From: Saprospiraceae bacterium | GTDB taxonomy: Bacteria > Bacteroidota > Bacteroidia > Chitinophagales > Saprospiraceae | DNA length: 40,720 nt | Reading direction: 5' to 3' | Assembly (NCBI GenBank): GCA_043748865.1 | Contig: JAYTNA010000065.1 | Span: 1-40,720 of the forward strand | Shown here: positions 1 through 30,018 of the stretch, in pieces | How the letters are laid out: every line of letters begins with the position of its first letter | How positions within the stretch are numbered: the stretch's first letter is position 1 | The notes under the pieces: model-generated | What the model saw: only the letters and a program-made list of their open reading frames with translations | What the model was told of the DNA's origin: nothing | Databases searched by the model: none | Translations under genes and position numbers: made by a program

Positions 1-651
1 GAGAGAAATTTAGAAATAAAAATTTTGGAACAAGATTTAGAAAATTTTTGGGTGAATGCCGATTTTAAAAACAATTTTAAAAATTCATCGCCTTATAAAA
101 ATTTAAAAATTAATTTAAGCGGCTCATATCAAGAAAAAAATATTGCTACCGTTTTGCAGAGTATTGAATTAATGAAGACTTTGCCGTTTTTTAAAAACAT
201 CGAACCCGAAATATGGCGCAACGGCATTGAAACCGGATTAGCAAATTTAAAATCGCTCACAAATTTTATTGGCAGGTGGCAGATTTTGCAACGCTCTCCA
301 CTTATCATCGGCGACTCCGCGCACAATGAAGCGGGGATAAAATATGTCACGCAACAATTAGCAACGCTTAAATACAATCAATTGCACATTGTAGTCGGTA
401 TGGTGCGCGATAAAGATATTACAAAAATGTTGGCTCTTTTTCCGAAAAATGCGATTTATTATTTCTGTAAAGCCAACATTCCGCGCGGTTTATCGGCAGC
501 TGATTTGAAAACGAAAGCACAGAGTTTTGGTTTAAAAGGAAAAAATTATTCATCCGTCAAACGCGCTTACGCTGCGGCAAAAAAATCCGGTAACGCCGAC
601 GATTTAATTTATGTAGGTGGAAGTATTTTTGTACTAGCGGAAGTACTTTAA
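1..651 (+). CDS. folC: Folylpolyglutamate synthase / dihydrofolate synthase (Mur ligase family), C-terminal part; the 5' end lies outside the window
   Basis: Frame 1 is open from nt 1 with no upstream stop. The translation has Mur-ligase C-domain motifs typical of FolC (LSGSYQEKNIATVLQSIE, IIGDSAHNEAGIKYV, HIVVGMVRDKD). TAA stop at 649-651. Confidence 0.85.
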   Translation, partial: ERNLEIKILEQDLENFWVNADFKNNFKNSSPYKNLKINLSGSYQEKNIATVLQSIELMKTLPFFKNIEPEIWRNGIETGLANLKSLTNFIGRWQILQRSPLIIGDSAHNEAGIKYVTQQLATLKYNQLHIVVGMVRDKDITKMLALFPKNAIYYFCKANIPRGLSAADLKTKAQSFGLKGKNYSSVKRAYAAAKKSGNADDLIYVGGSIFVLAEVL

Positions 652-708
652 TTTACTTTTCTTGAAAATTTAAAAAATTCAACTTATTTTTACCCGATAA
701 ATTTTTTT

Positions 709-1833
709 ATGAAAATCCACAACGTTTCAATAAATAATTTTAAGTCTATCCGTGAACTCAAAGATTTTGAGTTACGGGATATAAATGTTTTCATCGGCTC
801 GAACGGTGCGGGTAAATCTAATTTTATTTCTTTTTTTAAATTTTTACAACAAATTGTAACCCAAAACCTTCAATTTTATACAGCTAAAAAAGGTGGTGCC
901 GATAATTTTTTATATTTTGGAAGAAAGGTGTCGTCCTTGTTAGCTTTAAAAATAGTTTTTAATATCCATAAAGATCTTTGGAGTTCATACAACATAGAGT
1001 TGGAAGCCACTGATGATGATAAATTTATTTTAAAACAAGAAGTATCGAGTGTTAGAAAATTTCCGGGTGAATGGCAAGACCATAATTATAGAGTAGGGAT
1101 TTATGAAAGCTATTTAGGTATAGGCATGGAGCATGAAGCGCAATATAAAAATGGTTTTAAAATAGTCGAGTTAACTACTACACCGGCTCCAATAATAAAA
1201 CAAATAAAAATTTATCATTTTCACGATACAAGTGATAGTGCGTATGTTAAAGGTTTTACCGGTATTGAAGACAACCGCGAACTTCGAGAAGATGCATCTA
1301 ATTTAGCAGCCTTTTTATACATTTTGAAAAAAAATCATCTGCAACATTTTCTGCAAATTGAAAAAGCTATTCGTCGTATTGCACCATTTTTTGATCGGTT
1401 TAATTTGGAAGAGTCACAAACTTTAAAAGGTAAAATTAGAATCGAGTGGTTTGAACGCGGGTCAGACAAACAATTTACAGCACATCATCTTTCAGATGGA
1501 ACGTTGCGCATGATATGTTTAGCAACACTTTTGCTTCAACCCAAATTACCATATATAATTATAATTGATGAACCCGAACTTGGCTTACATCCTTCTGCAT
1601 TAGGTATATTAAGTGGTTTGATAAGTATTGCATCTCAATCATCTCAAATTATTATCGCCACGCAATCAACTTCTTTTGTAAGTCAATTTAATCCGGAACA
1701 TATTGTTGTTGTTGAACACGAAGATAACCAATCAACGTTTAAACGACTTGATGCAGCGTCTTTAGATGTTTGGCTTGAAGATTATACTTTAGGTGAAATT
1801 TGGGAAAAAAATCTTATAGGCGGCAGACCTTAA
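709..1833 (+). CDS. ABC-type (SMC/RecF-like, AAA_21/AAA_15-like) ATPase; first gene of the two-gene cassette
   Basis: Walker A GSNGAGKS (aa 30-37), ABC-signature-like LSDGT (aa 261-265), Walker B plus D-loop IIIIDEPELGLHP (aa 283-295). A long insertion of about 220 aa separates Walker A from the signature, as in OLD/AriA/AbiLi-type ATPases. TAA stop lies 8 nt before the next ATG. Confidence 0.85.
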   Translation: MKIHNVSINNFKSIRELKDFELRDINVFIGSNGAGKSNFISFFKFLQQIVTQNLQFYTAKKGGADNFLYFGRKVSSLLALKIVFNIHKDLWSSYNIELEATDDDKFILKQEVSSVRKFPGEWQDHNYRVGIYESYLGIGMEHEAQYKNGFKIVELTTTPAPIIKQIKIYHFHDTSDSAYVKGFTGIEDNRELREDASNLAAFLYILKKNHLQHFLQIEKAIRRIAPFFDRFNLEESQTLKGKIRIEWFERGSDKQFTAHHLSDGTLRMICLATLLLQPKLPYIIIIDEPELGLHPSALGILSGLISIASQSSQIIIATQSTSFVSQFNPEHIVVVEHEDNQSTFKRLDAASLDVWLEDYTLGEIWEKNLIGGRP

Positions 1834-1841
1834 ACTATAAT

Positions 1842-2510
1842 ATGGAGCATAAATTTGTAACTATTCTCGTAGAAGGACAAACCGAAGAAAGTTTTGTTAA
1901 AGAAGTTTTATATCCTTATCTTGAAAAATATAGAATTTGGGTGACTCCAGTTATAATTTACAGTAAAAACGATAATACTTTTGGTAAAAAACATAAAGGT
2001 GGTTCTGTTTCATTTGGTAAAGCTAACAATAATTTAAAAAAATTATTACAAGATACCTCAAAGGTAGTAACTACTTTTTTTGACTTCTATAGGCTTCCTA
2101 ACGATTTTCCTGAACATTCAAATTTGCCGACATCGGATAAACATATTTATGAGCGTGTTATTTTTTTAGAAAGGGCTTTTGAAAATGAAATTAATAATTC
2201 GCGTTTTAAAGCCTATATTCAACCGCATGAATTTGAAGCCTTATTGTTTTCGGATATTGTAGGTTTTACAAAAACATTTTCCGAAGAAGTAAAATCTCTT
2301 TCAAAAATTCAGAAAATTATTTATACTTTAGAACCCGAAGAAATCAATAATGGTGTTGATACTGCTCCTTCTAAACGCATTGAAAAACTATTCAAAAAAT
2401 ATAAGAAAGTTATACATGGTAAAGATATCGCCACAGAAATTGGCATTGAAAAAATGCTTGAAAAATGCCCGCACTTTCGAGAGTGGATAGATTGGATGAA
2501 AAATCTGTAA
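1842..2510 (+). CDS. DUF4276-family protein (putative Toprim-like effector); second gene of the cassette
   Basis: From the ATG at 1842 the protein begins MEHKFVTILVEGQTEESFVKE, the hallmark N-terminus of DUF4276 (hydrophobic strand plus VEGxTE). Other acidic or conserved patches: FFDFYRL, HEFEALLFSD, and CPHFREWIDW at the C-terminus. The ORF-track start at 1800 overlaps the ATPase and adds a non-conserved basic leader, so I prefer 1842. Confidence 0.75.
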   Translation: MEHKFVTILVEGQTEESFVKEVLYPYLEKYRIWVTPVIIYSKNDNTFGKKHKGGSVSFGKANNNLKKLLQDTSKVVTTFFDFYRLPNDFPEHSNLPTSDKHIYERVIFLERAFENEINNSRFKAYIQPHEFEALLFSDIVGFTKTFSEEVKSLSKIQKIIYTLEPEEINNGVDTAPSKRIEKLFKKYKKVIHGKDIATEIGIEKMLEKCPHFREWIDWMKNL

Positions 2511-2519
2511 TAAAAAAAA

Positions 2520-2546
2520 GCCTCGAAAGTTATTTACTTTCAAGGC
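2520..2546 (-). terminator. Rho-independent terminator downstream of topA; may also stop the convergent DUF4276 transcript
   Basis: Stem gcctcgaaagt / actttcaaggc (10 of 11 bp) with a 5-nt loop. An A8 run on the + strand gives a T-run after the hairpin on the - strand. Confidence 0.6.
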
Positions 2547-2709
2547 TTCAACTCAGTAATGCAAATTTAACCTAAACCAATTTTTTTCTCAAATTTGAAA
2601 TTTCTTTCGACACAAAGTTACAAGCATTACAAAGTGAAAACATTATTACAATGCGTATTTAACCTCACTTTAACGTGTGTAAAATGAGTGTCACACAATT
2701 TTTACAGTT

Positions 2710-5298
2710 TTATTTTTTCTTAAACGCTTTTCCGACGGGTGCTTTGCCGGTAGTTTTTGTTTCCGGTTTAGCAACCTGAACTTTCTTTTTAATGACAAAA
2801 GCATCAGGAAAATCAACTTCCACCATTTTTTTCACTTCTTCAAGTGTGAGTGATGCACATTCTTCCGGTGTTAATTTTTTTCCGTCGCGTTTTACATTTA
2901 TCATTTCTTTTCCGAAACGAATGAATGGTCCCCAACGTCCGTTTTCTACCGTCAATTTTTCCGCTTCCCAATTGTGAATATATCTGTTACCTTCTTTTTC
3001 TACTTTCGCTTCAATTAATTCTGTGGCTTGTTCCACAGAAATTGTTTCCGGATTATATTTTTTCGGAATCGGAATAAACATATCGTTCCATTTTATGAAT
3101 GGACCAAAGCGACCGGAGCCTTTCGTAATCGGCAAATCTTTATACGAAAACAAGGGTGCATTGGCGCGTTTATTTTCTTCGTACAACTCAATAGCACGTT
3201 CCAAACTAATATCTAACGGTGCTTCACCTTTCGGTAACGACACAAATTTATCGCCGGCTTTCAAATATGGACCGAATCTGCCAATACCGATTGTCAGAAT
3301 AGTATCGTCATATTCGCCCAAAGTTTTTGGTAATTCAAACAGTTTGAAAGCTTCTTCGAGCGTGATGGTTTCGATGGATTGATTTTTTTGCAAACTCGCG
3401 TATTGAGGTTTGTCTTCTTTACCGAGTTCTTCTGTTGTTCCGATTTGCGCCATTGCACCGAATTTACCCAAGCGCACCAAAATAGTTTTACCCGAAATCG
3501 GATCAACGCCGAGAATCCGTTCACCGCTCACCCGCTCTGCTTCATTCGCTGTTTTTTCAACTTCAGAATGAAAGGGGTGATAAAATTTGGAAAGCATATC
3601 CACCCAATTGCGTTTGCCTTCGGCGATGGAGTCGAATTGTTCCTCAATATCGGCAGTGAAATTATAATTCATCACATCATCGAAATGTTTGTCTAAAAAA
3701 TCTACGACCAACATACCGATATCTGTCGGCAGCAAATGATTTTTTAAAGCACCGGTCATTTCCGTTGATTTATTGCCCGTTATTTTTCCGATTTTATCCA
3801 ACAACATGACAGAAAATTCGCGTTGTGTGCCTTCTCTCGTTATTTTTTCAACGTAACCGCGATTTTCTTCCATGATTTTTGAAATTGTCGGTGCGTAAGT
3901 TGAAGGGCGACCGATGCCGCGTTCTTCCAATTCTTTTACCAAAGCTGCCTCCGTAAAACGCGATGGCGGACGCGTGAAACGTTCTGTCGCCGTCATTTTT
4001 TCAAAATTTAACTTCTGTCCGATTTTTAACGGCGGTAATGTACCGGCAACTTCGTCATCGTCATCATCTTTTGATTCGAGATAAACTTTTAAAAAGCCGT
4101 CAAATTTTATCACTTCACCTTCTGCATTTAAGCGCGCTTCGGGTTGAGTGGAGATATTTATGTTGACCGTGGTTTTTTCCAATTCGGCATCAGCCATTTG
4201 CGATGCGATGGTACGTTTCCAAATCAGTTCATATAATTTTTGTTGATCGCGGTCTTCCGTGACGTGGCGTTTTTCGATATAAGTAGGTCTGATAGCTTCG
4301 TGCGCTTCTTGTGCCGATTCTTTTCCGGTTTTAAATCTGCGCGTTTGCACATAATTTTTACCGAATGAAGTTTCAATTTCTGATGTAATCGCCGCAATCG
4401 CCGTTTCACTCAAATTTGTCGAATCGGTACGCATATACGATATGTGTCCGGCTTCGTACAAACGCTGTGCGTTTTGCATCGTGCGGTTTACAGAGAACCC
4501 TAATTTACGACTCGCTTCTTGTTGCAACGTTGAAGTAGTAAATGGTGCAGTTGGTTTGCGCTTCAACGGTTTAACTTCAATATTTTTTACGGTATAAATT
4601 GCACCGATACATTTTTTAAGAAAGTTTTCCGCCGCATTTTTTTCATCAATGCGATCCGGTGATTCAGCTTTCAGAATGACCGGTTTGTCGCCGGAATTTT
4701 TTTCTAAAAAATCCGCTTCAATTTTGAAAAACGGTGCGCTGTTAAATTTTTGAATCAATCGCTCGCGTTCCACCACAATTTTTACTGCAACGGATTGTAC
4801 ACGCCCGGCAGAAAGTCCGCCTTTAACTTTCTTCCACAGCAAACCCGACAATTCAAAACCCACTAATCTATCCAACACACGCCGCGCTTGTTGTGCATCC
4901 ACCAAACTCAAATCAACAGTGCGCGGATTTTGAACAGCTTTCAGAATCGCCGGTTTAGTGATTTCTCTAAACACGATGCGTTTTGTAGTGTGTTCATCCA
5001 AATTTAAAACTTTACACAAATGCCAAGAAATGGCTTCACCCTCGCGATCCTCATCCGTTGCCAACCAAACTTCTTCAGAGTTACGCGCTTCATCTTTCAG
5101 CGACTTCACTACTTTAATTTTATCGGGTGTAACGATGTAATTGGGTTTGAAGTTATTTTTTATATCCACACCCTCATCACCTTTTTCCAGGTCGCGAATA
5201 TGTCCGAAACTCGAAACCACTTTAAAGTCTGCACCTAGTATTTTTTCAATCGTTTTAGCTTTAGCCGGTGATTCTACTATCAATAAATTTTTTGCCAT
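2710..5298 (-). CDS. topA: DNA topoisomerase I (type IA)
   Basis: 862-aa ORF with an N-terminal Toprim region (LLIVESPAKAKTIEKILG, ATDEDREGEAISWH), an active-site region (HISYMRTDS) and C-terminal repeats of GRFGPY/GRWGPF type. Confidence 0.97.
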   Translation of the reverse strand: MAKNLLIVESPAKAKTIEKILGADFKVVSSFGHIRDLEKGDEGVDIKNNFKPNYIVTPDKIKVVKSLKDEARNSEEVWLATDEDREGEAISWHLCKVLNLDEHTTKRIVFREITKPAILKAVQNPRTVDLSLVDAQQARRVLDRLVGFELSGLLWKKVKGGLSAGRVQSVAVKIVVERERLIQKFNSAPFFKIEADFLEKNSGDKPVILKAESPDRIDEKNAAENFLKKCIGAIYTVKNIEVKPLKRKPTAPFTTSTLQQEASRKLGFSVNRTMQNAQRLYEAGHISYMRTDSTNLSETAIAAITSEIETSFGKNYVQTRRFKTGKESAQEAHEAIRPTYIEKRHVTEDRDQQKLYELIWKRTIASQMADAELEKTTVNINISTQPEARLNAEGEVIKFDGFLKVYLESKDDDDDEVAGTLPPLKIGQKLNFEKMTATERFTRPPSRFTEAALVKELEERGIGRPSTYAPTISKIMEENRGYVEKITREGTQREFSVMLLDKIGKITGNKSTEMTGALKNHLLPTDIGMLVVDFLDKHFDDVMNYNFTADIEEQFDSIAEGKRNWVDMLSKFYHPFHSEVEKTANEAERVSGERILGVDPISGKTILVRLGKFGAMAQIGTTEELGKEDKPQYASLQKNQSIETITLEEAFKLFELPKTLGEYDDTILTIGIGRFGPYLKAGDKFVSLPKGEAPLDISLERAIELYEENKRANAPLFSYKDLPITKGSGRFGPFIKWNDMFIPIPKKYNPETISVEQATELIEAKVEKEGNRYIHNWEAEKLTVENGRWGPFIRFGKEMINVKRDGKKLTPEECASLTLEEVKKMVEVDFPDAFVIKKKVQVAKPETKTTGKAPVGKAFKKK

Positions 5299-5367
5299 GT
5301 CATATTTTTTAGCTTCCCTTTGTTGTTTCTTTTTTGTGAATACAAAAATTTCGAGTGCAAAGGTTCT

Positions 5368-5545
5368 CTAAAAAAATCCAAATAAAAAAATAAAAATTTT
5401 TTTTAAAACAAAATAATTTTTATTTAAGAAAAAAAATAAAAAAAGTTTTTTGAAAAAATTGTTTTCTAAAAAAAATCCGGTAAAAAAATAAATTCTTTTT
5501 TAAAATAAAATTATTTTATTTAAAAAAAAAAATTAAAAAAAATCC
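5368..5545. repeat. Extreme A/T-tract block containing a roughly 98-bp tandem duplication, in the topA upstream region
   Basis: Two near-identical units start at 5368 and 5466 (ctaaaaaaatcc... and ctaaaaaaaatcc...). A third aaaaaaaatccc start lies near 5535. The block is almost entirely A/T, made of phased A-runs and T-runs. Confidence 0.7.
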
Positions 5546-21131: not shown

Positions 21132-22187
21132 TCAAATCAAATTATACCAAGTGCCTTTCCCGATACCATTTCGTTGAATTTGATTATTTTTCACTAAACT
21201 TTCAAGGTGTTTTCGTAAGGTATTTCGATTATATTGTGTGAAAGTTGCCAATTCACTTATCGTAATGCGCCCATTTTCACGAATTAAATCCACAATTGTT
21301 TGCGACATATCCGGCAGTTGCGTTAGCAAAAGGCGTTCTCGTTTTATCTTAATATCTAAATTATCTTTTTGACGTTTCAGCGATTTTAGAAAAAACAAAA
21401 CCCACGGCGACCAATTGGGTTCGTCCTGATTGAGTGTTGTTTGAGTTTGGCGCAATGATCGGTAATATTCGGGCTTCTCCCGTTCAATCACCGCTTCAAG
21501 AGAACTGTATGCTACATAACGATAACCCGCTTTTAGCAATAAAAAAGTCGTCAAAACTCTTGAAAGCCGTCCATTCCCATCTTGAAAAGGATGAATTGCC
21601 AAAAAACTAACCGTAAAAAAAGCAATAATCAATAAAGGATGCCAGTCTCTTTTTTTCAGATTTTCGACTGCCCAATCCACTAATTCTTGCATTTTTATTG
21701 GTGTTTCCAAAGGTGTCGTTGTTTCAAAAACGACCCCAACAACTTGACCAAAAGGATCTGTTGCGACCACATGATTCGGGAATTTTTTATATTGTCCTTT
21801 ATGCCATTGGTCTTTTTCACTATACTTCATCAGGTAGTCGTGTAGCTGTTGAATGAAATTTTCAGACAATGGAATATCATTATAATTATCAAAAACTATC
21901 GTCATCAAATCTGCATATCCTGCCACTTCTTGCTCGTCTCGGGTTTCAAATTTTTGAATTTTGAGATCGGCAATCAATTTTTCTACTTGTTGGTCAGTCA
22001 ATAAACTGCCTTCGATACGGGTACTTGATGCAATACTTTCTATCGTTGCTACTTTTCTAAGTTGCAACAATCTGTCGGGTGCGATATTGCCTAAAGCCAA
22101 CCACGCTCCTTTAAATTCGTCAATTTCTGTCATCAGATTGACGATTTGTTTTGTCAATATCAAAAATTCTGTTTTTACCATACGCAC
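21132..22187 (-). CDS. Fic/DOC-family protein (putative AMPylase) with an N-terminal inhibitory motif and a C-terminal winged-helix domain
   Basis: Canonical Fic motif HPFQDGNGRLSR (aa 199-210, nt 21558-21593). S-x-x-x-E-G inhibitory-helix motif STRIEG (aa 55-60). C-terminal HTH-like region (ISELATFTQYNRNTLRKHLESLV). Confidence 0.92.
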   Translation of the reverse strand: MRMVKTEFLILTKQIVNLMTEIDEFKGAWLALGNIAPDRLLQLRKVATIESIASSTRIEGSLLTDQQVEKLIADLKIQKFETRDEQEVAGYADLMTIVFDNYNDIPLSENFIQQLHDYLMKYSEKDQWHKGQYKKFPNHVVATDPFGQVVGVVFETTTPLETPIKMQELVDWAVENLKKRDWHPLLIIAFFTVSFLAIHPFQDGNGRLSRVLTTFLLLKAGYRYVAYSSLEAVIEREKPEYYRSLRQTQTTLNQDEPNWSPWVLFFLKSLKRQKDNLDIKIKRERLLLTQLPDMSQTIVDLIRENGRITISELATFTQYNRNTLRKHLESLVKNNQIQRNGIGKGTWYNLI

Positions 22188-28344: not shown

Positions 28345-30018
28345 ATGATTCACAGACTTTTAATAAAAAATTACGCGCTCATAGAGCATCTCGATGTGGC
28401 TTTTGATGCCGGATTAACAATTATCACCGGTGAAACAGGTGCCGGTAAATCTATTTTATTGGGTGCACTCGGCATGATTTTGGGCAACAGAGCCGATGCG
28501 AAAGTATTGTATAATCAAGCAGAAAAATGTGTAATTGAAGGTTACTTTGATGTCTCTTCTTATGATTTAAAAGAATTTTTTGAAGAAAACGAAGTGGATT
28601 ACGATGTCAATACTGTCGTGCGACGCGAACTCACGCCGCAAGGAAAAACGCGCCAATTCATCAACGATACGCCCGTTAATTTGAATCAATTGCGTTCTTT
28701 TACCGGAAAATTAGTGGATTTGCATCAGCAATTTGATACAATGGAAATCAGCGACGCGAGTTTTCAATTGCAAATGATTGATGCTTTAGCAGATAATAAA
28801 GTACCGCTTGCCGAATACAAAAAAATATTTTCAACTTACCAATCAAACAAACGACAATTGTCGGATATGATTGAACAAAGTGCGCGATCAAGCAAAGAAA
28901 TAGGTTTCTGGAAATTTCAACTTGATGAACTCGAACAAGCAACACTCGTTGAAGGGGAACAAGAACAATACGAAACGAATTTAACGCGCCTGCAAAACGG
29001 AGAAAATATTAAACGACAACTCACGGCAGCTTTTCGCGCAGTGATTGACGATGAAAATGCGATTGTCGGACAAATGCGTTCGATTACGCAAGGGGTAGGA
29101 CAAGTAAAAAAATTTAATTCGGAAATAGCCAAACAGCACCAACGTTTAGAAAGTGTGATGCTCGAATTAGATGACATCGGTAACGAATTGGAACGCCTTT
29201 CAGAGGATACTGAATATAATCCGGAACAAATTCAAACCATACAAGCGCGTTTGGATGTAATTTATAAACTACAAAAAAAACACAACGTCAACTCAATTCC
29301 GGAATTATTGACGCTGCAAAATCAATTTCAAGCACAACTCGACGCGGTGGCGGATATGTCGGAAGGTATCGGAACTTTTAAAAAGCAGATTGCTGAACAA
29401 GAAATTACTTTAAACGCGCAAGCCGGCAACTTATCGCAACGCCGGCAAACTGTATCGCCGGGTTTTTCCGAAAAAGTATTACAGCGTTTGCGTTTGTTGG
29501 GCATGGAGCAATCACAAATGAATGTAACGTTCAAATCCGCTCCTGCACTTACAAATACCGGCATTGATGATGTACAATTTTTATTTGCCGCTAACAGAGG
29601 TTCGCGTTTGCTACCGATAAAAGATGTTGCTTCGGGCGGTGAATTAAGTAGGTTGGCTTTGTGTGCTAAATCTTTAGTAGCAGCCGCAATTCCGTTGCCG
29701 ACGATGATTTTCGATGAAATTGATAGTGGTGTATCCGGTGATATTGCTTTGAAAATGGGAAATATTTTGCAACAACTTGCTTCGCACCATCAAATTGTCG
29801 TCATTACGCACTCGCCGCAAGTGGCCGCAAAAGCCAATAAACATTATTTTGTTTATAAAACGCTTCAAGACGATCGCACTTTCACAAAAGTACGTTTGTT
29901 GGAGTATGACGAACGCGTTCGTGCAATTGCTACGATGTTGAGCCAAAATCCACCATCTAATTCTGCTTTGGAAAATGCGAAAGAATTGATGAGTGAAAAA
30001 ATATCAATAGGTAGTTAG
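28345..30018 (+). CDS. recN: DNA repair protein RecN (SMC-like ATPase)
   Basis: N-terminal LLIKNYALIEHLDV...GETGAGKSIL (Walker A), a long coiled-coil middle, and a C-terminal ASGGELSRLALC signature with MIFDEIDSGVSG Walker B. Confidence 0.95.
   Translation: MIHRLLIKNYALIEHLDVAFDAGLTIITGETGAGKSILLGALGMILGNRADAKVLYNQAEKCVIEGYFDVSSYDLKEFFEENEVDYDVNTVVRRELTPQGKTRQFINDTPVNLNQLRSFTGKLVDLHQQFDTMEISDASFQLQMIDALADNKVPLAEYKKIFSTYQSNKRQLSDMIEQSARSSKEIGFWKFQLDELEQATLVEGEQEQYETNLTRLQNGENIKRQLTAAFRAVIDDENAIVGQMRSITQGVGQVKKFNSEIAKQHQRLESVMLELDDIGNELERLSEDTEYNPEQIQTIQARLDVIYKLQKKHNVNSIPELLTLQNQFQAQLDAVADMSEGIGTFKKQIAEQEITLNAQAGNLSQRRQTVSPGFSEKVLQRLRLLGMEQSQMNVTFKSAPALTNTGIDDVQFLFAANRGSRLLPIKDVASGGELSRLALCAKSLVAAAIPLPTMIFDEIDSGVSGDIALKMGNILQQLASHHQIVVITHSPQVAAKANKHYFVYKTLQDDRTFTKVRLLEYDERVRAIATMLSQNPPSNSALENAKELMSEKISIGS

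Follow-up and report, generated by a model that had tools for sequence, protein, structure and literature searches.

A stand-alone HEC-01 pair, an ABC ATPase with a DUF4276 Toprim-like protein, in the folC/topA gap of an uncultured Saprospiraceae bacterium

HEC-01 (Hma-embedded candidate 01) was defined by Payne et al. (10.1101/2024.01.29.577857) as an ATPase and a TOPRIM protein embedded in Hma systems. In that study, predicted structures identified the HEC-01 ATPase as an ABC ATPase, and the metal-binding site of OLD was reported to be common to HEC-01B. Burman et al. 2024 (PMC11464382) included DUF4276 in their AAA15/21 tree and grouped 'MADS3-4' with the ABC ATPase plus Toprim systems, and the Menshen analysis (NAR 2025; PMC12065111) assigned DUF4276 and RloB to the Toprim superfamily and identified Mad4 of MADS as DUF4276. 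MADS is an eight-gene operon in which mad3 and mad4 are both needed for defence, and in which deletion of the methylase gene mad5 requires the loss of mad2 or mad3 as well (10.1101/2023.03.30.534895). The Toprim nature of DUF4276 and the OLD/PARIS-like character of an ABC ATPase combined with DUF4276 are thus already published (Payne 2024, Burman 2024, Menshen NAR 2025). The present analysis concerns a two-gene cassette of this type lying between folC and topA in a 40,720-nucleotide stretch of Saprospiraceae DNA (contig JAYTNA010000065.1 of assembly GCA_043748865.1, positions 1 to 40,720), referred to here as the window. By its profile matches, the pair almost certainly belongs to HEC-01 as named in PADLOC-DB v2, a candidate system known before this work. 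The whole is best described, with better than even confidence, as a horizontally acquired, stand-alone HEC-01 copy in the folC/topA gap that encodes an OLD-like, ATPase-controlled nuclease defence.

The cassette spans window positions 652..2510 (plus strand; 1859 bp) and consists of a 57-nt leader and two genes on one strand. The ABC ATPase gene HEC-01A (open reading frame (ORF) 1; 709..1833, +) starts with ATG and encodes 374 aa, and the gene for HEC-01B, a DUF4276 Toprim-like putative nuclease (ORF2; 1842..2510, +), also starts with ATG and encodes 222 aa; both assignments were made from Pfam, PADLOC and fold comparisons. Only 8 nt separate the ORF1 stop from the ORF2 start. For ORF2, the ATG at 1842 was favoured over the upstream TTG at 1800 of the mechanical ORF list, because the homologues begin 1-3 residues before the conserved V-x-I-L-V-E-G-Q-T-E-E block. 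In PADLOC-DB v2, ORF1 matched HEC-01A (PDLC04175; E = 6.6e-135) with residues 2-374 against profile positions 5-362 of 363, and ORF2 matched HEC-01B (PDLC04188; E = 9.1e-77) with residues 5-222 against profile positions 14-226 of 230. The PADLOC matches of ORF2 were to HEC-01B models only, and those of ORF1 to the AriA, AbiLi, GajA, Old, PtuA and mad3 models were at least 100 orders of magnitude weaker than its match to HEC-01A. Both ORFs are full length against the hidden Markov models (HMMs), and all family-invariant residues are intact. Against the closest homologues in the databases the pair reaches only 57-67% identity, and the identical ORF2 protein is present in 5 independent assemblies.

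The initial annotation, a reading of the sequence alone, had described two co-oriented ORFs with 8-nt spacing between folC and topA, and had named the motifs Walker A, LSDGT, Walker B, VEGQTEE and HEFE, all of which are present and conserved in the alignments. Its placement of gene 1 in the OLD/AriA/GajA-type ATPase group agrees with Pfam, PADLOC and Foldseek, and its recognition of gene 2 as a Toprim-like DUF4276 protein was borne out by Pfam, by the order of secondary structure elements in the model and by matches to the OLD C-terminal region. The proposed OLD/PARIS-like architecture with a different effector family was essentially right. The statement that no named system is built on DUF4276 was wrong, as PADLOC-DB v2 lists the pair as HEC-01 and Mad4 of MADS is a DUF4276 homologue; since an existing tool already names the pair, the claim of novelty falls by the annotation's own terms.

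For gene 1, Pfam returned AAA_21 (6e-29) and also AAA_15, and the only NCBIfam match was a sub-threshold one to MAD3 (NF047739; 91.6 bits against a cut-off of 420). The Walker A motif (G30-S37; nt 796-819, +), the signature LSDGT (residues 261-265; nt 1489-1503, +), Walker B (D287/E288; nt 1567-1572, +) and GLHP (residues 292-295, +) are invariant among the HEC-01A homologues (alignment A3), and a YHFHDTSD motif lies at residues 169-176 (+). The AlphaFold2 model of ORF1 has a mean predicted local distance difference test score (pLDDT) of 92.5. Foldseek matched it to SMC and Rad50 heads (TM-score 0.58-0.60; E of about 1e-12 to 1e-13) and also to OLD (6P74), Septu PtuA, Gabija GajA and retron ATPases (about 1e-12). 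With its Walker A, signature, Walker B, D-loop and head fold, ORF1 has the features of an ABC ATPase of the SMC/Rad50/OLD clade, and within the ABC ATPases gene 1 falls into the OLD/AriA/GajA/PtuA-like group. At the H-loop position (T318-Q319-S320; nt 1660-1668, +), the aligned counterpart of TTHS in the retron I-A ATPase 9N69, the switch His is replaced by Gln319, and this Gln is invariant in all 50 aligned HEC-01A homologues. From the alignment, the H-loop Gln may indicate that ATP is hydrolysed slowly or in an altered way. At its C-terminus, the ATPase has a tail (residues 355-374; window 1771-1830) that carries an invariant or nearly invariant pattern, W355...Y359...G362..W365-E-K-N...G371-x-R-P374, of which the last 10-15 residues have low model confidence; judged from the model, the tail could serve as a peptide on which the DUF4276 partner docks.

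Gene 2 matched Pfam DUF4276 (5.2e-55) over the whole profile and had no NCBIfam model; it gave no match to the AriB, DUF4435 or RloB models of Pfam and PADLOC at E≤0.1. Its invariant acidic residues and their immediate context are E11 (1872-1874, +), E15 (1884-1886, +), D81 (2082-2084, +) and E130-F-E132 (2229-2237, +), with E11/E15 held in VEGQTEE and the last two in HEFE at residues 129-132 (alignment A1). Further invariant residues are G12, G53, G54, P165, E166, P176, R179, K189, C209 and W215, P165 and E166 forming part of PEE 165-167. In the AlphaFold2 model (pLDDT 93.2; predicted TM-score 0.89) the order is β1 (4-10)-α1-β2 (32-38)-α2-β3 (75-81)-α3, followed by a helical C-terminal half. 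As in Toprim domains, E11 comes after β1 and D81 is the last residue of β3, and the E-x-E after β4 is invariant. In this predicted structure, the alpha/beta fold, in which a conserved Glu ends strand 1 and strand 3 is followed by an acidic motif, corresponds to the Toprim superfamily. At E≤1e-3, the only Foldseek matches of the model were 6NJV, 6NJW and 6NJX (E = 6.6e-5, probability 1.0, TM-score 0.42), all of the C-terminal catalytic region of Xanthomonas OLD; a comparison of the predicted structure with OLD had been proposed in the initial annotation. The DUF4276 profile found nothing below E = 1 among PDB sequences, and the link to OLD came from the fold comparison only; a sequence search likewise found no solved structure of the HEC-01A or HEC-01B family. 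The loop at residues 39-57 (window 1956-2012) is the sole part of the ORF2 model with low confidence (pLDDT about 50-75), and it holds the invariant K-G53-G54. The presence of an invariant motif in a loop modelled as flexible suggests a contact with the partner or the substrate.

The flanks of the cassette are the 3' part of folC on the left (25..651, +), which has 79% DNA identity to folC of relative L165 and whose full-length gene in L001 (the source contig) carries Mur_ligase_M/C, and topA on the right (2710..5298, -), with Toprim, Topoisom_bac and Toprim_C_rpt domains and homologues named as Saprospiraceae type I topoisomerase. The empty site was found through a large protein database and contig look-ups in the two closest relatives, L165 (GCA_038226035.1; TopA 88% identical) and L166 (TopA 89% identical). 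In L165, folC and topA are convergent, with about 196-200 nt and no cassette between them; in L166, the end of folC and the intergenic sequence are as in L165, at a contig edge, and again there is no cassette. In both relatives, the hairpin and the intergenic sequence of window 2513-2709 recur directly after the folC stop. With blastn, L165 11282-10735 aligned to window 104-651 and L165 10739-7908 to window 2506-5392. This jump in the alignment, together with the empty folC/topA gap in the closest relatives, defines the cassette as a 1859-bp insertion (652-2510). The cassette landed between the folC stop and the native terminator of the convergent folC/topA pair, and very probably it was gained by horizontal insertion. 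No target-site duplications, inverted repeats, integrase or tRNA were found at the junctions, only a T(T/G)TAA microhomology, which coincides with two stop codons.

The base composition of the cassette also differs from that of its surroundings. Its G+C content is 31.0% (32.8% for the ATPase gene and 29.6% for the DUF4276 gene), whereas topA has 40.8% and the window as a whole 37.5%, and G+C at third codon positions (GC3) is 0.22 and 0.20 in the ATPase and DUF4276 genes, below that of every one of the 25 other ORFs of the window (0.345±0.041; minimum 0.266). The foreign origin proposed in the initial annotation is supported by both the empty sites and GC3; the low G+C that it had reported was right in direction but overstated in size. 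The shared hairpin terminator that it had counted with the cassette does exist (2517..2549, minus strand; a 14-bp stem followed by a T-run on that strand in the terminator scan), but it is native to the insertion site. As it is found between folC and topA in the relatives without the cassette, the hairpin was rejected as a cassette component and is treated as the folC/topA terminator, that is, as flanking context rather than cargo.

Two sources of expression are possible, and both are inferred. Read-through from folC could occur because the insert lies upstream of the native folC terminator, and the AT-rich leader (652..708, +) contains a sigma-70-like match (662-690), with TTGAAA (662-667), 17 nt and TATTTT (685-690); this is the sole internal promoter candidate and comes from a consensus scan only. 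Two other sources of empty-site comparison were tried and set aside. Among metagenome contigs scanned with TopA, identity of the best relatives was only 54-61%, and none of them carried folC, the ATPase or DUF4276 next to topA; in P0249 (TopA 76% identical) the folC-topA synteny was lost.

The occurrence of the pair elsewhere was assessed by a scan of one genome per species, which gave at least 574 DUF4276 loci, 80 of them kept for context analysis. The ATPase lay directly upstream on the same strand in 77 of these 80 loci; in the remaining three, DUF4276 was within 100 nt of a contig end, so that the arrangement was present in 77/77 testable loci. This is the conservation of adjacency for which the initial annotation had proposed a check. 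The gap between the aligned ATPase and DUF4276 regions was 3-36 nt, and the loci span Chloroflexota, Bacteroidota, Proteobacteria, Cyanobacteria, Bacillota, the candidate phyla radiation (CPR) and Chlamydiae. The pair is a conserved adjacent unit.

Clustering of the neighbours of the 80 loci gave five recurrent families, namely SNF2 helicase (DrmD/HmaA-like), type III methyltransferase, type III Res, HsdR and RhuM/PDC-S05, and, in a purely descriptive count, at least one of these restriction-like families lay within 10 kb at 17 of the 80 loci. At L020, L067, L070, L073 and L076, the pair sits inside a co-directional operon of the order helicase-[pair]-Mod-Res. Immediate neighbours numbered 117; N6_N4_Mtase (7), ResIII (7) and SNF2 (4) were the sole Pfam families that recurred among them, and the rest were diverse housekeeping genes. 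Such a frequency of restriction genes would be far above that expected around a random gene. A phage or satellite origin as a general rule was rejected, as only 5 of the 2.9 million IMG/VR contigs carry a relative. At three Proteobacterial loci a RhuM-family gene (PDC-S05; L040 14228-15283, L076 14167-15255 and L081 15225-16325) is co-embedded with the HEC-01 pair in the SNF2-Mod-Res operon, from which it follows that one restriction-like operon can carry several embedded cassettes.

An anti-phage role of the cassette is considered probable, in view of the restriction-like neighbours at some loci, the embedding of HEC-01 in Hma systems, the protection reported for a cold-seep HEC-01 (PMC12881386) and the need for mad3 and mad4 in MADS. 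For the mechanism, in which a sensor releases a nuclease, confidence falls somewhat short of even, as it is drawn by analogy with OLD, Gabija and PARIS. On that analogy, HEC-01A would oligomerise and hold or regulate the HEC-01B nuclease; the metal-dependent Toprim nuclease would be licensed by a phage-derived cue combined with the binding or hydrolysis of ATP; and HEC-01B would then cut nucleic acid and keep the phage from replicating, which might sacrifice the infected cell. DNA is favoured as the putative substrate, because the DNA-nuclease region of OLD is the only structural match of the modelled effector.

Several observations weigh against this picture of an ATPase-controlled nuclease defence. 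In the work of Payne et al. (10.1101/2024.01.29.577857), the HEC-01 representative left E. coli unprotected against every phage tried. The copy described here lies outside any defence island, and about 80% of the sampled loci (63/80, this one included) are without a recognisable defence neighbour in the same descriptive count. The TM-score of the ORF2 model to OLD is low (see above), and the canonical Toprim DxD reads D81-F-Y83, with Y83 nearly invariant; going by the alignment, E130-x-E132 may substitute for the second Asp. For a clustering of the acidic residues in space, the support comes from Payne et al. (10.1101/2024.01.29.577857) and from PMC12065111. As Gln invariably takes the place of the H-loop His, ATP may be turned over differently than in OLD or AriA.

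The main mechanistic rival is a PARIS-like tRNA target. A HEC-01A cage would sense phage anti-restriction proteins and release HEC-01B, host tRNA would be cleaved, and infection would be abortive. The split ATPase/Toprim layout matches AriA/AriB, the tree of Burman et al. (PMC11464382) puts the DUF4276-containing MADS3-4 in the same ABC ATPase plus Toprim group, and a guard of restriction might well be expected inside type III-like, Hma-like and type I restriction operons, where some HEC-01 copies sit. This explanation is nevertheless unlikely. The effector finds OLD and no AriB among the listed Foldseek matches at E≤1e-3, in keeping with its lack of AriB/DUF4435 model matches; the AriA match of the ATPase (1.1e-28) is about 100 orders of magnitude below that of HEC-01A and looks like generic AAA_21 similarity; and relatives on IMG/VR viral contigs number only the five mentioned.

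A related and more speculative proposal, which is rated a little lower still, makes HEC-01 an autonomous PARIS-style guard of restriction. The H-loop-Gln ATPase would act as a slow-hydrolysing latch that sequesters the DUF4276 nuclease, and binding of a phage anti-restriction or DNA-mimic protein would free it. If true, this would explain the recurrent embedding in type III, Hma and MADS operons, the frequent stand-alone spread into core-gene gaps such as folC-topA and the inconsistent, trigger-dependent phage phenotypes, and the substrate of the nuclease would be different from both that of OLD and that of AriB.

The absence of protection by HEC-01 alone in Payne et al. (10.1101/2024.01.29.577857) would also be expected of an accessory restriction module that needs a partner modification or helicase system, in which case the stand-alone copy would be inert or weakly active. 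The same dependence is seen for mad3/mad4, which act within the eight-gene MADS and show the link to mad5 described above, and would fit the copies between SNF2 helicase and Mod/Res genes, e.g. at L020, L067, L070, L073 and L076. This is quite unlikely, as the 63 loci without such partners within 10 kb have kept the invariant residues and the tight coupling, and the MAD3 equivalog score is far below its cut-off. In a cold-seep study (2026; PMC12881386), moreover, cloning of a HEC-01 as a separate gene cluster was reported to shield E. coli B from one or more of the phages T7, T5 and T4.

A non-immune function, either as a selfish addiction or toxin-antitoxin-like mobile pair or as an OLD/RecF-like accessory of DNA repair, is very improbable. 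A small two-gene cassette with no recombinase between core genes, the mixed experimental data on defence by HEC-01, and the resemblance of the ATPase head to the SMC/Rad50 repair ATPases could be read in this way. Against this, the distribution is patchy over many phyla, the cassette is absent in the closest relatives, the only recurrent neighbours are restriction-modification genes, and both proteins match a defence-candidate family. That the cassette is a decaying, non-functional remnant of a transfer can hardly be credited, as nothing specific speaks for it beyond the low G+C and isolated position, and the ORFs are full length against the HMMs with their invariant residues intact and an identical ORF2 protein in several assemblies.

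The preferred reading, a horizontally acquired stand-alone HEC-01 copy with a probable role in defence, carries little weight as a discovery, since HEC-01 is catalogued, the Toprim nature of the effector is published and the kinship with OLD/PARIS has already been drawn. The value of the locus lies in the filled and empty sites with base-level boundaries and neither recombinase nor repeats, which make it a clean natural insertion and show a minimal two-gene HEC-01 cassette landing between convergent core genes upstream of their shared terminator. HEC-01 is widespread: at least 574 loci occur in the one-genome-per-species collection, and the protein clusters of the family number more than 6000; reports of experiments on it conflict. 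Family-specific targets for mutagenesis are the H-loop Gln, the invariant KGG loop, the D-x-Y and E-x-E that stand where DxD would be, and the conserved tail at the C-terminus of the ATPase.

Some further observations concern the surroundings of the cassette. Between the cassette and the topA stop, window 2511-2709 (minus strand) is conserved well above the flanking genes. Two blocks, one of about 75 nt with the hairpin in it and another at about 2660-2700, are near-invariant in the window, L165 and L166, whereas coding DNA is about 79% identical. On the minus strand this region has a folding z of -5.9 and ends in the hairpin and a U-run; no Rfam match was found for it, and it could be a structured topA 3' untranslated region or a small RNA. 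Uma2 genes, of restriction-endonuclease-like fold, occur next to folC in the source contig (L001 1967-2506) and, in a more distant relative, flank topA on either side (L167/L168 5508-6101 and 12188-12775); small Uma2 genes seem to settle in the same gaps between core genes.

No helicase, methylase or integrase gene was found beside the pair, as the initial annotation had noted, and the rest of the 40-kb window is housekeeping (SusC/D, dehydrogenase, FG-GAP, Fic, RecN, an aconitase-family protein and FtsH). The Fic/DOC-domain protein (351 aa; 21132-22187, minus strand) lies about 18.6 kb from the cassette, and some Fic proteins are listed as defence candidates (SoFic). The RecN-like SMC_N/AAA_23 ATPase (557 aa; 28345-30018) also has a weak AAA_21 match; its gene is one of ordinary repair and has no relation to the cassette, but keyword-type scans could mistake it for a second defence ATPase.

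In comparison with the described systems, the cassette shares with Mad3-Mad4 of the P. aeruginosa MADS the combination of an ABC ATPase with a DUF4276-type Toprim protein, both of which MADS requires for defence. It differs from MADS in the sub-threshold MAD3 equivalog score (91.6 against 420), in a PADLOC mad3 match of only 1.1e-25 and no mad4 model match, and in flanks (folC, topA) that lack the mandatory Mad6-8 genes and the methylase. With PARIS it has in common a split ATPase sensor and Toprim effector in adjacent genes and an ATPase of the AAA_15/AAA_21 families; it differs in having no DUF4435/AriB match and no AriB among the listed Foldseek matches, and the pair is rare on viral contigs. 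The AriA models matched ORF1 at 1.1e-28 and 3.3e-15, far more weakly than HEC-01A, which fits generic AAA_21/AAA_15 similarity. The OLD family (class 1 P2 Old, class 2 Xanthomonas/Burkholderia OLD and GajA) is alike in the fold of the ATPase, in the resemblance of the effector to the OLD C-terminal Toprim and helical region, and in the ExxxE (E11/E15) after strand 1. In contrast to OLD and Gabija, the ATPase and the Toprim protein are separate polypeptides here and no GajB/UvrD partner is nearby; D81-x-Y83 and E130-x-E132 stand for DxD, Gln stands for the H-loop His, and the GajA and Old HMMs gave only partial matches to ORF1 (about 4e-19). AbiL (AbiLi with AbiLii/RloB) is likewise a two-gene system that pairs an ABC ATPase with a Toprim-superfamily effector, but the AbiLi match is partial (8e-24) and gene 2 has no RloB match. 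The pair is not a member of PARIS, AbiL, Gabija, fused OLD or MADS. With HEC-01 the likeness extends to gene order, tight spacing, full-length matches of both proteins and the combination of an ABC ATPase with a DUF4276 Toprim protein; apart from the 57-67% identity to the nearest homologues, the difference is one of setting, this copy from an uncultured Saprospiraceae genome standing alone between housekeeping genes rather than embedded in an Hma system.

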